64,000 bases of DNA from positions 32,001 through 96,000 of the forward strand of contig CAWJTV010000029.1 of assembly GCA_963845755.1 (NCBI GenBank). The letters run 5' to 3'. The notes under the pieces are model-generated. The model ran no database searches. It saw nothing but the letters and a program-made list of their open reading frames with translations, and was not told the DNA's origin. Origin of the DNA: an uncultured Planctomycetota bacterium (GTDB lineage Bacteria; Planctomycetota; Planctomycetia; Isosphaerales; Isosphaeraceae). Made by a program: the position numbers and the translations under genes. This document shows positions 48,701 to 52,277 of this stretch, piece by piece; positions within the stretch are counted from its first letter, which is position 1; each line of letters begins with the position of its first letter.

Positions 48701-49835
48701 ACTGCGGGGCGGCCATGCTGGTGCCGCCGGCCTGCGACCAACCGGGCGCAATGCCGAGGGAGGTGTTGTCGAGAGTGTCGTAAATGGGGACGCCGGTGCC
48801 GGGATCGGCGTCGTAGGCGACGTCCGGTACGGTGCGGTAGCCGCCCGAGGGATAGCCCTCGGCGGTCAAATCCGCCTGGATGCCGTCCTGGTAGGCCGGT
48901 TGCGTCTCAACCGTACTGATGCCGCCCCCGCTGGCAAGATAGGTTGCATTGGGATCGCTACCCTGGCTCCAGCCGATCTCCTGGGACCGGTCTGGATTCC
49001 CGTCCTGATCCGGGGGCAACGCCGTGCCGCCGACAGTGAACACATTGGGAGACGCCTGGGGCAAGAACAAGCCGATCTCTCCGGGGGACTGGAAAGCGCC
49101 GTAGTCCCCGCTGGCGGCCACAAAGGCGACGCCCTGGTGCCCGACCGGCGTGGTGTAGAGGCCGTCCTGCAGGTATTCGTCTTCCGCCGAGCCTGTGTAG
49201 GAGGCCGGCGCTTCGGCACCGGTAGAAAAACTCATGGAGACAACGCAGACGTTGGGCTGGCGCGCCGCGTACTGGATCGCCGTGTCCAGGTTGGCCCAGA
49301 CGAAATCGTCCGCTTGGACCAGCAGGATGTTGGCCCCCGGTGCGATCGCGTGGGCCCATTGGACGTCCAGGCTTTCCTCGAGGTCCCAGCTCGAGCCGGG
49401 GGCAGCGGCGGGCAGGGTGTTACCGCCGTGTTCGTTGACGATCTGGAGGAAGTTGGTGTTGGTGGGGTCACCGGCCGCTCCGCCGATGTTGAAGGTCTCG
49501 TCGAACTGCTGCACGTCGCTGCGGAGGTTCGGGTCGCCGTAGGCATCGACGATGGCGATCGTCTGCCCCTGGCCCGCCAGGTTGTCGTTCGAGAGGCCAG
49601 GGATTTGGTCGAAGCCATAGGCCTGCCGGAGCTGAGCCGGCGTGTAGCCGGTGGGGCCTGACGCTTGTTGCGGCTGTGCCAGGACCAGGTTGACGACGGC
49701 CCCGGGGCCCAAGGCGGGAGGCGCGGTGAGCAACCGGCGTTCTTCGAGTGGCTCGACGACCAGCCGGCGACGAGCGGCCTTGCGTACGGGCCGGGGCTTG
49801 CGTGTTCGAGACCAGGTGCGGAATCGAGAGAACAT
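45747..49835 (-). CDS. Secreted S53 (sedolisin-like) peptidase with long beta-helical passenger region
   Basis: VEPLEERRLL motif, GYTPAQLRQAYG, EESLDVQWAHAIAPGA (E-x3-D), ASGD, VPDVAYDAD, GGTSMAAP and GYDLVTGLGTP. Confidence 0.9.
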   Translation of the reverse strand: MFSRFRTWSRTRKPRPVRKAARRRLVVEPLEERRLLTAPPALGPGAVVNLVLAQPQQASGPTGYTPAQLRQAYGFDQIPGLSNDNLAGQGQTIAIVDAYGDPNLRSDVQQFDETFNIGGAAGDPTNTNFLQIVNEHGGNTLPAAAPGSSWDLEESLDVQWAHAIAPGANILLVQADDFVWANLDTAIQYAARQPNVCVVSMSFSTGAEAPASYTGSAEDEYLQDGLYTTPVGHQGVAFVAASGDYGAFQSPGEIGLFLPQASPNVFTVGGTALPPDQDGNPDRSQEIGWSQGSDPNATYLASGGGISTVETQPAYQDGIQADLTAEGYPSGGYRTVPDVAYDADPGTGVPIYDTLDNTSLGIAPGWSQAGGTSMAAPQWSALVAIADQARAAKSEGTLDGPNQLLPAVYQIAQTDPNAFHDITSGNNYYPAGPGYDLVTGLGTPNAQYLVPDLVAAYSTPPTPTTVYWTGAAGDDSWNDPGNWSLVDHVPGNVLPGPNNNVVIDTSGVTINRLSASYDTIGSLSVTAQNVTLNLDSGTLDLSGAGTLGTFQVDQPGDVVNLAAGVLQNATVTSNTTITVPNSAIGLVNGGVLDGAVQVQGSGTLQLAGNWTNNGTITAGSGSTLILGDYWSAGVDDPSAAGAAWVNNGTITTNQATVELGGWLTDTGTNLGSLNLGTDAVNLIGTLDNAGHTLALAPGVTSSTGSWAFAGGRIDGGAIATTGGAALVNWSSAPDVLDLFNYAFNLLDGVTLDGTLDMSSGNNTVTVVDGLTLNTDLDLSAYNANLEFEGSNPQAVGIGSAVSSATIHLSGLDSFLANVGTQTLTIDPGITIAGGSPYGGFIFGFEPGTIGEIDNRGTIEQNTPGDLQLGGLVNDGTITASHGGVISLETALLGLGSPWINADDGTITARDGGSLALYDNWINDGRILVDASSSVSLGSPVTEGNYSPTPGLIWSNSGTLAIAKGATVNLGDYFTTDEFADHFRQLGVNLDLSQYTVNLVGTIDNSPADNPLTGGNLVLDGATGSLYLSAGVIDGGTITTTGRQELIATDDSYNYDDSGPYTIGGGTLNGVTLDGTLDMQSIPAATATILNGLTLNGTIALTGSGAVLDLGDDDSTPETIGGTGTILFGQTSADTLQNTSYGTMTFGPGITIQGGRNSFIESPNAAIVNQGTIAEDASRGVLVVVSPDPFSNAGRVTVGRGAAFNTGTVAYIQSGGTTTVDGILQAVAVDLVGGSLNGTGMICGTSNSVVNVINAALIVPGDPLGTLTILGNYTQTATGVLVIQIAGSNQYGRLVIAGRATLDGTLVVSLLDNYVPAVGTTFQILTFAEYTGGFTTEIGLGLPDHRSLKPVWGSGSLTLTVTS

Positions 49836-49899
49836 GGTCAATCCCCTTTGGGGCGTGAGGTCGCATTGGAACAGAAAACCGGAATAAGCCCGTGGTAGG

Positions 49900-49927
49900 C
49901 TGAGTCCGTTGCGGCGCGAGGTTAGGA
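49900..49927 (-). other. Left half of an attC-like site (truncated by the IR)
   Basis: Minus strand TCCTAAC-CTCGCGCCGCAACGGAC; the gene stop codon lies inside the inverse core YYTAAC. Confidence 0.55.
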
Positions 49928-50436
49928 GGATTCCCACGGGCGGCGCGCAGCCGGTCCTCGCGGGCCGGTCCGGCGACCAACCGCATCACCCCGTGGCCCA
50001 CGAGCACGAGGACGACGTAGCTCGCGGAGATCGCCAGGACCGGAGCGATCCCCGGCCCGTAGCTGCCCCATTCCGGGAACTGCCTCATGTACCAGTAGTT
50101 TCGCAGCGGTCCGATGACTGCCACGACAACCAGGTCCACGGCCAGCCCCCGCCAGCCGAACCGGCGGGCGATCCGCCAGGTGACGAGGAAAATGAACGCC
50201 CAGAGCGTCGCGCCAATCAGCATCAGTGTCAGGAAGTACGGCCTCCATGGGATCGTAAAGTGCCACCACCCCACGCGCTCACCAAAGCCGACGATGCCCA
50301 GCATCACGACACCCGTCGCGGCCCCGCCGGCCAGGGCACCCGCGATGCGCCGTGGCGTCGCGCGAGTGAGGATGGCGACCACAACTGAGAGGACCAGGTA
50401 GAGGAAGTTAAACAGGTGGAGCTGCGTCGTGGTCAT
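49922..50436 (-). CDS. Small polytopic membrane protein (cassette gene; frameshift near its 3' end)
   Basis: MTTTQLHLFNFLYLVLSVVVAILTRATPRRIAGALAGG...; about 5 hydrophobic segments; GGAGG RBS; ends RRPWESS* in the adjacent frame. Confidence 0.75.
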
Positions 50437-50450
50437 GCCCCCTCCACTTC

Positions 50451-50583
50451 GCCTAAATCCTGCTTGTTCGGACATTTTGTGCATAAGATTACTTATACGT
50501 TCAGTTCAAGGTGAAATCAGCGTAAAATACGCTGATTCCGGCCCGTTAGCCTCGAAAAACCTCGTCGTATAATGAGCTTATGC
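50451..50583 (-). other. attI-like / tyrosine-recombinase-type site cluster
   Basis: Minus strand GTCCGAAC-AAGCA-G(GAT)TTAGGC just upstream of the cassette gene. Two inverted GCATAA-N5/6-TTATACG dyads (50481-50499 and 50566-50583) flank a perfect hairpin at 50515-50537. Confidence 0.5.
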
Positions 50584-50731
50584 TGGGTTTCTATTCCAAT
50601 GCTACTCACGTTCCTTTCACGAGTGAGCCTGCGATCGAATGCTGGAGCAGATCTCTGGGCGTGCCGATCAACCGCCAGGACCGGCTGCTTCGGTTCCCGC
50701 GGTTTCCGTGGCTGGCGACGCGCATCAACGA

Positions 50732-52106
50732 TCACGTCTCGATGTACGTCCCGAAGATATTGGGGTTGCTGGTGGAGGCGGTGTTGGAGATGACGTGGGC
50801 CAGCGTGAAGGCGTCAATGTAAACGGTCGTCCCCGTTGCAATGTACAGGCCGCCGCCCTCCCCCAGGGGGTCAGCGGGCCAGGGGTCGCCCGGGGCGTTC
50901 GAGCCCCCATAGGCATGATTGGTTGTTACGGTGACGCTGGTCAGAGTGACCGTACCGGCGGCAACCTCCAGCCCGCCCCCGAAACCGTTGCCGCCGGCCC
51001 CGCCGTTGGTGCTGCCGGGCCCACCCCCGCCGGGGGGGCTGCCGGTCCCACCGTTTCCGCCCTGAGTGGTATTGGAGGACAGTGCGGAGTTTGACACGCT
51101 GACCGTGCCGCCGCTCACCTGCAGCGCGCCCCCGAAACCGTTGCCGCCGTGGCCGCCATAGCCCGCCGATCCTGCGCCGCCTTGGCCCCCCTGGGCGACA
51201 TTGGAAGAAAGGGTGTTGGTGCTGAGTGTGACCGTGCCGCCAGCGACCTCGAGCGCGCCCCCGAACCCGTTGCCGCCGGTGCCGCCTGTACCCCCACTCG
51301 AGTATGTGCCGACGCCTTGGCCGCCCTGAGCCGTATTGGAGGACAGGGTCACGCTGGTCAGGGTGGCCGTTCCGCCGGCAACGTAGAGCCCGCCTCCGGA
51401 CCCGTTGCCGCCGCTCGGTGCCCGACCTTGCACCGCCATCAATCCGGCGCTACTACCACCGAGTGCCTGGTTGTTCTGAACCGTGGTGCTGCCTTCCAAC
51501 GTCAGCGAGGCGCTCGAGTAGATGCCGCCGCCGGCTGCGTTCTGACCGGCAGATGACCGGGTCGGTGGGGTGCCCTGCGCGATGTTGTTCTGCACGGTCA
51601 CGCCGTTGAGGGTCAGGGCACCCTGGTTATCAATCGCCCCGCCGTCGGCCGAGATCCCCGAGCCCGATGCCAACCCGCCTTGCAGCGTCATGTTCCCCAG
51701 CGTCAGCGATGCCCCGGCCGCCACGTCCAACAGCCGAAAGCTTGGCGTTCCCGAGGCCGTGCTCCGCTCAATGGTGTCGCCGCTGCCGACGATCGTCAGG
51801 GTGTCATTGGCGGCAATCACCGGCAGCGCCGTTGGCGCCGTCGGTGGAGTTGTTCACAGCCGTCAGGACATAGGGCGAAGTTGTCGGGGCCGTCAGGGTG
51901 ATGGTGTTGGACCCGCCGGCCGTGTTGGAGGCGGTGATGTCGGCGATCAGGACCGCCACGTTGGCGGCGGAGTAATTCGACAGCACCACGCGGTCGTCGA
52001 GGTGCTCCAGGAACAGGCGCGTGCCCCGGCGTGTCGTCCGCGGCTCCTGGCGCCGCCTCCAGGAGGGCACCGATTTCCACGACGCCAGTTAAGAATTGAA
52101 CCACAT
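50732..52106 (-). CDS. Secreted Gly-rich beta-helix repeat protein with LExR motif (frameshifted)
   Basis: LEHLDDRVVLS motif (ORF 51804-52070) joins ORF 50732-51820 with GG.G.GG.L.V.GG repeats. ATG at 52106 with AAGGAG RBS. Confidence 0.75.
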
Positions 52107-52277
52107 CGTCAGTCTCCTTTCCCGAGCCAGTCTGCGATCGAATGCCGGAAGTCGCCTGGCGCGCAGACTCGAGCGCCAGGGGCCGGCCGGGTCGGTGAAC
52201 TTTCTGCCTGACGGCCAGGGACTCACCGGCCGCATTGTTCCTGTTCCGCGCGTCCGCTCATCGTTTTCTGAGCGGGT

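Follow-up and report, generated by a model that had tools for sequence, protein, structure and literature searches.

The DNA analysed here, referred to below as the window, is a 64-kb stretch (64,000 nt) of contig CAWJTV010000029.1 from an uncultured Planctomycetota bacterium, and the subject of this study is a 763-bp element at positions 49850–50612. We conclude that this element is very probably a decayed, non-autonomous copy of a Tn3-family transposon, namely a mobile insertion cassette (MIC) that derives from a miniature TIME-like element and carries a fossil integron cassette, and not a minimal integron. Its coordinates and parts are listed in Table 1. Three defects mark the window copy as decayed: its right tip is damaged, its left terminal inverted repeat (IR-L) has gained 1 nt, and its only gene is frameshifted eight codons ahead of the ancestral stop. 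The host assembly comprises 14.27 Mb in 49 contigs and is 88% complete. In the following, G000 denotes the host genome, other G numbers denote genomes, C numbers contigs, and L numbers fetched loci.

The ends of the element were examined by repeat searches and by comparison with neighboring DNA. In a 2.5-kb scan, 49850–49888 and 50577–50614 formed the longest inverted pair. The inner 26 nt of IR-L were found again on the minus strand at 50577–50602 with four mismatches, and 200 shuffled windows contained no match to these 26 nt at five or fewer mismatches. A pattern search at three or fewer mismatches recovered IR-L alone because the right repeat (IR-R) has four. The flanks 49821–49849 and 50613–50694 both aligned to a single paralogous leader, 52093–52196, located 1.5 kb away, with scores reached by 1 of 500 and 0 of 500 shuffles, respectively. 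Both copies of the sequence CCTTT fell on the same five bases, 52116–52120, of this uninterrupted leader, which lies upstream of the next gene and served as a proxy for the empty site. This coincidence is the signature of a 5-bp target-site duplication (TSD) and delimits the element as 49850–50612. The preliminary description of this DNA had recognized both IRs and extended the right one to 50614; with the 5-bp duplication, the right end moves to 50612. A second paralogue on contig C27 was uninformative as a proxy, its alignment scores being reached by 62 and 344 of 500 shuffles, and no orthologous empty site was found among 25 relatives. The membrane-protein gene is the sole plausible gene inside the element; the other listed open reading frames (ORFs) overlap it in alternative frames, and none encodes a transposase.

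The IRs were assigned to a family through the transposase genes that accompany them. The host genome contains eight IR copies, and solo IRs were located on C20 and C48 and at C16:44714. A profile built from the host's IR copies matched directly behind tnpA at E ≤ 2e-8 in 4 of 12 fetched tnpA loci, and in related genomes, autonomous Tn3-family elements end on their tnpA side in an IR matching that of the window element. The preliminary description had proposed to look for a cognate tnpA flanked by such IRs, and one was found in each of G033, G029, and G012. The G033 transposon is 3951 bp long and has identical 38-bp IRs, the TSD GTGAA, a serine resolvase gene (tnpR), and a tnpA of 1057 aa, the product of which is 54–59% identical to Tn3-family transposases of plasmids. 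The G012 transposon (4188 bp) encodes a 1045-aa TnpA and a tyrosine recombinase and carries the resolution-site module described below. The G029 transposon (G029:C9; L095 8433–16765) spans 8335 bp with the TSD GTAAA; a frameshift splits its tnpA, and it also encodes a tyrosine recombinase. Passenger DNA, in which a 951-aa WD40 protein is encoded, directly adjoins one half of the resolution-site core of this transposon. The Pfam family PF01526 was present in 51 of 120 other genomes of the host's order. The IR profile gave no real match in a Tn3-family element of an Escherichia coli plasmid, and the family assignment rests on the cognate tnpA instead of on the proposed resemblance to the classical Tn3 IR. 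The IR family, the TSD, and the lack of an internal transposase agree with the earlier view of a non-autonomous Tn3-family element without enzymes of its own. When 49 ORFs around the gene at seven homologue loci were searched with Pfam, neither a Tn3 transposase nor a resolvase adjoined the gene. At L016, one Phage_integrase match (273 aa, E = 1.8e-11) was located about 1.7 kb downstream of the gene homologue.

On the minus strand, the interior of the element reads, from IR-R inward, as a subterminal motif, a hairpin, a core dyad, a stretch from GTCCGAAC to TTAGGCG, a ribosome-binding site, and the membrane-protein gene. The two dyads, the hairpin, the gene, and the sequence from the gene end to IR-L were all present as previously noted, and the hairpin is perfect in the window copy alone, the homologous stretch of other copies pairing poorly. 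About 115 nt inward from IR-R showed 69–75% identity to the host copies on C16 and C47 and to the end of the G012 transposon, in which the shared module separates the IR from the beginning of the tyrosine recombinase gene. L021 shares the IR-proximal part of the module. Among elements with different cargo, the homology ends just past the core.

A recombinase search of the host's order yielded six closely related TnpI-like loci (G012, G034 twice, G071, G029, and G108) and 11 distant loci. The core and two direct CGTATAA motifs about 46 nt apart were found immediately upstream of the recombinase ATG in all six close loci. The core arms there are 7 bp long (CGTAGAA or CGTATAA, and TTATACG), and the spacer is 6 bp in four loci and 4 bp in G012; the second arm of G108 is degenerate. 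The recombinase genes of G012 and G029 themselves seem to be truncated or frameshifted. The full motif cluster was absent from all 11 distant recombinase loci, with L202 showing only an inverted pair. A BLAST search of the host genome with the module gave matches solely on C16 and C47 and, on C40, at an IR-like site; there was none in the vicinity of the integron integrase gene (intI) on C3. Judged by this arrangement and its gene neighborhood, the dyads are the predicted core and subterminal motif of the transposon's own TnpI-type resolution site and not an attI site. The window copy retains the core and one subterminal motif, and the accessory repeats have been lost. The subterminal motif recalls Tn5401, in which an extra recombinase motif lies beside the terminal IR. 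The dyad block had originally been interpreted as attI; it lies upstream of a TnpI-like gene in the autonomous elements and was not found near intI in the host genome, which is the outcome that the preliminary description had itself named as speaking against this interpretation.

The cargo gene belongs to a large set of homologues. The search returned 2224 homologues at E ≤ 0.001, and among the best 120 listed, nearly all were 171 aa long, with identities of up to 90%. Genomes labelled Planctomycetota, Acidobacteriota, Verrucomicrobiota, Actinomycetota, and Armatimonadota contain the gene at 47–81% identity. The product matched no Pfam family, an Atlas search with it returned only unnamed clusters, and its AlphaFold model (mean pLDDT 65, pTM 0.38) was too poor for a structure search; hydropathy suggests about five membrane helices. 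The window copy has lost 1 nt between 49948 and 49949 and is out of frame from there on, eight codons short of the ancestral stop; the shifted C-terminus is seen in the alignment. Because of this missing base, the ORF continues through IR-L to 49468. The ancestral stop is the TAA at 49922–49924, inside TCCTAAC, and the 171-aa homologues end exactly at that TAA. The stop that had been placed in TCCTAAC is therefore correct for the ancestral gene but not for the frameshifted window copy. The same deletion was present in three related loci, L021, L015, and L013, and is therefore a natural variant and not an assembly error.

The contexts of its homologues indicate that the cargo gene is a widespread integron cassette. 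A covariance model (CM) was built from an alignment of 69 attC recombination sites of the host. At E ≤ 0.01, attC sites detected with it directly flanked gene homologues at 5 of 66 genome loci (L011, L012, L029, L061, and L063) and at 17 of 80 metagenome loci. Some of the 17 metagenome loci are near-duplicates, and four (L110–L113) have the site on the other strand; both counts are lower bounds because the CM derives from the attC type of one genome. Several of the attC-flanked homologues lie within cassette arrays. These loci support the earlier proposal that the cargo is an integron cassette, the attC of which would have been cut by the IR.

The host genome has a complete integron. Its intI (C3:161245–162186, in L096 = G000:C3:150000–169999) scored 484.9 bits against TIGR02249, for which the cut-off is 265, and was the only intI above the cut-off. 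About 100 homogeneous attC sites of approximately 62 nt (109 profile matches) accompany it, the first about 400 nt upstream of intI, and attC arrays were found on at least six contigs (C3, C18, C34, C39, C41, and C47), mostly far from intI in a CALIN-like manner. The window element contains and adjoins no integrase gene, and the host intI is on another contig.

The putative attC remnant of the window copy lies between the gene end and IR-L. In the 64-kb window, the host attC profile ranked 49888–49934 first of 62 matches, with 4.4 bits and an E value of 1.7, and in L108, L123, and L015 the best profile match likewise lay between the IR and the gene end. The remnant is collinear with the first approximately 40 nt of the full attC sites of about 110 nt behind L011, L012, L014, and L017, and pairwise alignments were in register at attC positions 19–42 (shuffle p = 0.014–0.09). 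For the two remnants given alone, the CM gave scores below zero or nothing; with no CM match in the window, the attC there is called from the sequence profile and from collinearity.

At the other end of the cassette, TTAGGC, a 5′ boundary of the TTRRRY type, occurs on the minus strand at 50451–50456, 14 nt before the ATG. Among cassette-borne homologues, the upstream attC sites detected by the CM have R′ boxes that align with TTAGGCG, roughly 21 nt ahead of the start codon. Upstream of TTAGGCG, no recognizable similarity to attC or attI was found. For the GTCCGAAC...TTAGGC stretch, a collapsed attC or an attI was considered, and for the long leaders of L118 and L121 an entire attC of 110 nt. 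The CM found no attC there; the arms of this region do not pair, and part of it resembles, by eye, an accessory recombinase motif. The cassette leader is conserved as such in L024 and L021. A 3-nt insertion at the attI crossover had been taken as a sign that the window copy may be locked; L024 has identical letters there and L021 almost identical ones, and they represent the conserved state.

Other copies of the element, anticipated in the preliminary description, were found in metagenomes. L108 is 89.9% identical over 762 nt and has GGGG tips, the TSD ACGAG, and an intact 171-aa gene. L118 is 81% identical, is flanked by GAACC and GAACT (four of five positions matching), and has a longer leader with an accessory-type motif and a canonical GTTAGGC. 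Two further metagenome copies are partial: in L123, one IR is cut by the contig end, and L121, which also has a long leader with canonical GTTAGGC, has a truncated IR-L. The junction of the attC remnant with IR-L is retained in L015, L016, and L019, and IR-R with the module in L021. All eight cassette-bearing copies with the IR-L junction hold the same cassette. In at least seven of the eight, the attC breaks off at an identical point, and L015 has about 30 extra nt at the junction. This shared cut point argues for a single capture of the cassette followed by its spread through transposition. It had been proposed that cassettes are loaded in trans by IntI; no copy with a different cassette was found, and thus no sign of such loading. 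In one metagenome cassette copy (L126 888–930), an IR-like sequence abuts the ribosome-binding site with no resolution-site module between them.

The module is part of a family of miniature elements that extends beyond the cassette-bearing copies. It was present in 36 of 121 genomes of the host's order. Among 30 fetched module loci, 15 carry IR pairs 240–745 bp apart, and five of these have a perfect 5-bp TSD. The 241-bp forms consist of an IR, the module with the core, about 70 nt, and a second IR, and they carry no cargo. They were observed at L228 (1380–1620), L229, L227, and L222, from the relatives G071, G008, G061, and G012, and the TSD of L228, GGACC, is perfect. These cargo-free elements look like the basal form of the family. 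Other members carry other small membrane-protein genes, namely a 665-bp element of G046 with the TSD TACTT and a 1004-bp element on host contig C47 with a 120-aa membrane ORF. No attC was found in these miniature elements, and none in the 30 other module loci beyond one weak match (E = 0.34). On host contig C16, a 4.76-kb segment (C16:36928–41687; L006 2929–7688) is bounded by the same IRs without a matching TSD. This segment contains a membrane-protein gene behind the core, an IS66-family transposase gene, a beta-lactamase-family serine hydrolase gene, and the gene for an ArsR-type regulator with a small membrane protein.

From these data, we propose the following mode of action. A Tn3-family TnpA supplied in trans by an autonomous relative would act on the two IRs, and a TnpI-like tyrosine recombinase, also supplied in trans, would resolve the resulting cointegrates at the core beside IR-R. 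The cassette, comprising the TTAGGCG boundary, the ribosome-binding site, the gene, and about 40 nt of attC, is joined directly to the inner end of IR-L and occupies the place that the recombinase and transposase genes take in an autonomous transposon. Since the cassette sits at the tnpI position, it is probably transcribed from a promoter in the resolution-site region. The truncated attC would no longer be usable by IntI, and we infer that the cassette now moves only by transposition. Given the damage to its right tip, and since the 88%-complete assembly yielded no whole tnpA and no close homologue of the recombinase, the window copy itself appears to be immobile.

A number of observations weigh against this interpretation. 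A perfect TSD requires an IR-R of 36 bp, which is 2 nt short and lacks a GGGG tip, whereas an IR-R of 38 bp leaves unmatched flanks, CCTTT and TTTCA. The tip of IR-R is degenerate, reading AACG (or GGAACG) where GGGG is expected, and the right junction is damaged relative to intact copies whichever length is taken. No whole tnpA was found in the host assembly, which contains only a 57-residue PF01526 fragment on C43, and no close TnpI-like recombinase gene was found there. The likeness of the recombination site to the TnpI/IRS system is one of architecture and gene neighborhood and not of sequence similarity to Tn4430, and the actions of TnpA and TnpI given above are putative, as deduced from the DNA sequence. 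The attC remnant is weak when taken alone (4.4 bits, E = 1.7), the CM reported no attC at this remnant even with the stretch given alone, and the 5′ boundary of the cassette depends on a 7-nt box. A promoter scan of 49800–50700 found zero sigma-70-like promoters.

An alternative explanation of the same data is that the resolution-site core is a point of gene exchange, at which cargo modules are swapped by TnpI recombination in an integron-like capture based on TnpI/IRS. We consider this unlikely. It is in keeping with the finding that four different contents, i.e., the cassette, the membrane proteins of 153 and 254 aa in G046 and C16, the 120-aa membrane ORF of C47, and the tnpI of G012, share the module and diverge after the core, and that the transposons of G034, G071, G029, and G108 vary on the other side of the core. 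When the core lacks accessory motifs, recombination by TnpI is called "relaxed" in the consulted part of a study of Tn4430 (PMC2847244). However, the homology between elements spans both core arms, which places the break beside the crossover region and not inside it, and simple deletions selected to keep the IRs and the core would look alike. Neither a circular cargo form nor a second core flanking any cargo was seen. Moreover, exchange between the resolution sites of related Tn3-family elements is a known, unspecialized source of mosaics. A broader form of this idea, that the TnpI-type Tn3 miniature elements of planctomycete-like genomes form a large family, so far undescribed, whose bare core also serves as a point of cargo exchange, seems to us similarly improbable. 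If it were true, the space behind the core would receive small membrane-protein genes and, in a single lineage, an integron cassette; the recombinase promoter would drive their expression, transposition would spread them, and there would be a second, transposon-borne route of gene capture able to take over integron cassettes.

Still less credence can be given to the minimal integron of the preliminary description, in which a Tn3-type vehicle carries the dyads and the GTCCGAAC...TTAGGC block as an attI-like site and cassettes are loaded and unloaded by IntI in trans. In its favor, a true IntI is encoded by the host along with about 100 attC sites, the cargo represents a genuine cassette with the R′-type box TTAGGCG at its 5′ boundary, and a canonical GTTAGGC takes this position in L118 and L121, the copies with a long leader. 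However, the dyads belong to the transposon resolution site and are present without a cassette in the 241-bp elements and in the transposons, and the module is absent from the vicinity of intI, the BLAST search of the host genome having returned only C16, C47, and the IR-like site on C40. A working loading site is also at odds with the presence of one and the same cassette in all eight junction copies, with the same attC truncation in at least seven of them, and with the 30 other module loci, in which attC was limited to the single weak match. In addition, from what is known of integron biology, a truncated attC would be unable to form the folded substrate, and the R′ box of the window copy starts with T and not with G. 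The view that there is no discrete mobile unit, and that two unrelated solo ends or chance palindromes surround a native gene and its regulatory region, fits the mere 77% or so of likeness between the window IRs, the right tip that is not GGGG, and the solo IRs of the host assembly, but it can be practically dismissed because the unit from IR to IR recurs at other sites with its own TSD (ACGAG in L108; four of five positions in L118), comparison with the paralogous leader reveals a clean insertion that duplicated 5 bp, and no chance IR matches occurred in 200 shuffled windows.

The decayed MIC with a fossil cassette, which is the reading that we prefer, was compared with known systems using excerpts of the cited papers. 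TIMEs are described there as elements of typically 50–500 bp, without genes, from Proteobacteria (PMC13367494). The window element resembles them in its Tn3-type 38-bp IRs, 5-bp duplications, lack of a transposase, and mobilization in trans, and differs from them in its length of 763 bp with a gene, its resolution site of the tyrosine-recombinase (TnpI) type, and its planctomycete-like hosts (PMC13367494). According to the same account, the 241-bp relatives are TIMEs in the published sense (PMC13367494). Since 763 bp and a 171-codon gene exceed a strict TIME, the window element was classified as an MIC derived from a TIME. IS101, as far as it is covered in this material, is likewise a miniature element that keeps a resolution site, although its site serves a serine resolvase.

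The MICs bounded by TnXax1 repeats in Xanthomonas carry effector passengers, and those with effector or pathogenicity cargo other than TALEs are 3–19 kb long, according to the excerpted account (PMC4337579). As in the window element, passengers lie directly between Tn3-family IRs, no transposase is included, 5-bp duplications are formed, and the cognate transposase comes from a related element; solo IRs and decayed copies are common in both cases (PMC4337579). Unlike in the window element, a retained resolution site or an integron cassette is not among the features described in the excerpts of that report (PMC4337579). In IMU composites with blaGES-5 cassettes, Tn3-type miniature repeats move an integron-derived cassette without its integrase, as would be the case here; two separate miniature elements flank an integron remnant of 2.2–2.8 kb in the excerpted description of those composites, whereas a single element holds the cassette between its own IRs and beside a resolution site in the present case (PMC13367494).

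The IRS of Tn4430 consists of an inverted core pair with DR1 and DR2 upstream of tnpI (PMC2847244). The order of a tyrosine recombinase gene upstream of tnpA, preceded by a core and two direct accessory motifs, matches the autonomous relatives found here; the motifs of Tn4430 are 14 bp with a 4-bp spacer, as opposed to 7-bp arms and a 6-bp spacer here, and the motif sequence differs, so that the two are likened by architecture (PMC2847244, in part). CALINs, single attC sites, and insertions at secondary sites, as outlined in the consulted part of PMC4889954, resemble the window in having a cassette away from intI and a degraded attC. In the window, by contrast, a transposable unit that has itself spread encloses the cassette, with the attC cut alike in at least seven of the eight junction copies (PMC4889954, in part). 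What is new is that one unit combines these parts, that a miniature element has a site of the tyrosine-recombinase type, and that such elements occur in this host group. A text search of the literature found no paper combining Tn3-type miniature elements with planctomycetes, which is a weak statement on what is in print.

These results would provide a concrete route by which a cassette leaves the integron system, through loss of the distal part of attC and fixation in a Tn3-derived miniature element, followed by transposition. They also uncover a common miniature Tn3-type family with a tyrosine-recombinase resolution site. For annotation, the IRs and motifs of this family account for numerous short repeats in these very large genomes, as well as for many of their small orphan membrane-protein genes.

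Table 1. Parts of the 763-bp element and of its insertion site in the window
Feature	Position	Strand	Description
TSD, left copy	49845..49849	.	CCTTT; placed by alignment to the uninterrupted paralogous leader
IR-L	49850..49888	+	39 bp, from GGGG tip to inner TAAG; 1-nt insertion relative to the 38-bp family consensus
Putative truncated attC	49889..49927	-	Gene-proximal R box TCCTAAC, first arm, and part of the center kept; distal arm and R′ box replaced by the IR
Membrane-protein gene	49922..50436	-	ATG at 50436; conserved helical product of 171 aa; frameshifted in the window copy
Cassette leader	50437..50479	-	Ribosome-binding site 50440–50445; R′-type box TTAGGCG 50450–50456; GTCCGAAC stretch 50466–50473
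Resolution-site core (dyad 2)	50480..50499	-	Inverted 7-bp arms CGTATAA / TTATGCA with 6-bp spacer
IR-proximal module	50500..50576	-	Conserved spacer (hairpin 50513–50539) and subterminal recombinase-type motif TTATACG 50566–50572 beside the IR (dyad 1)
IR-R	50577..50612	-	36 bp if the TSD is CCTTT; 38 bp if extended to 50614
TSD, right copy	50613..50617	.	CCTTT; placed by alignment to the uninterrupted paralogous leader

A large secreted-protein gene of 1362 codons has its ATG at 49835, and the element lies 14 nt upstream of it. The frameshifted cassette ORF (49468–50484, minus strand) exits through IR-L and overlaps the start of this neighboring gene in another frame; the insertion ahead of its ATG may therefore alter the expression of that gene. 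A conserved leader of about 80 nt (50613–50694 and 52116–52196) precedes two neighboring large secreted-protein genes, and the element is inserted in one of its copies. Both leader stretches start with CCTTTC and include CTGCGATCGAATGC, and the leader may be a shared 5′-untranslated region or regulatory element.

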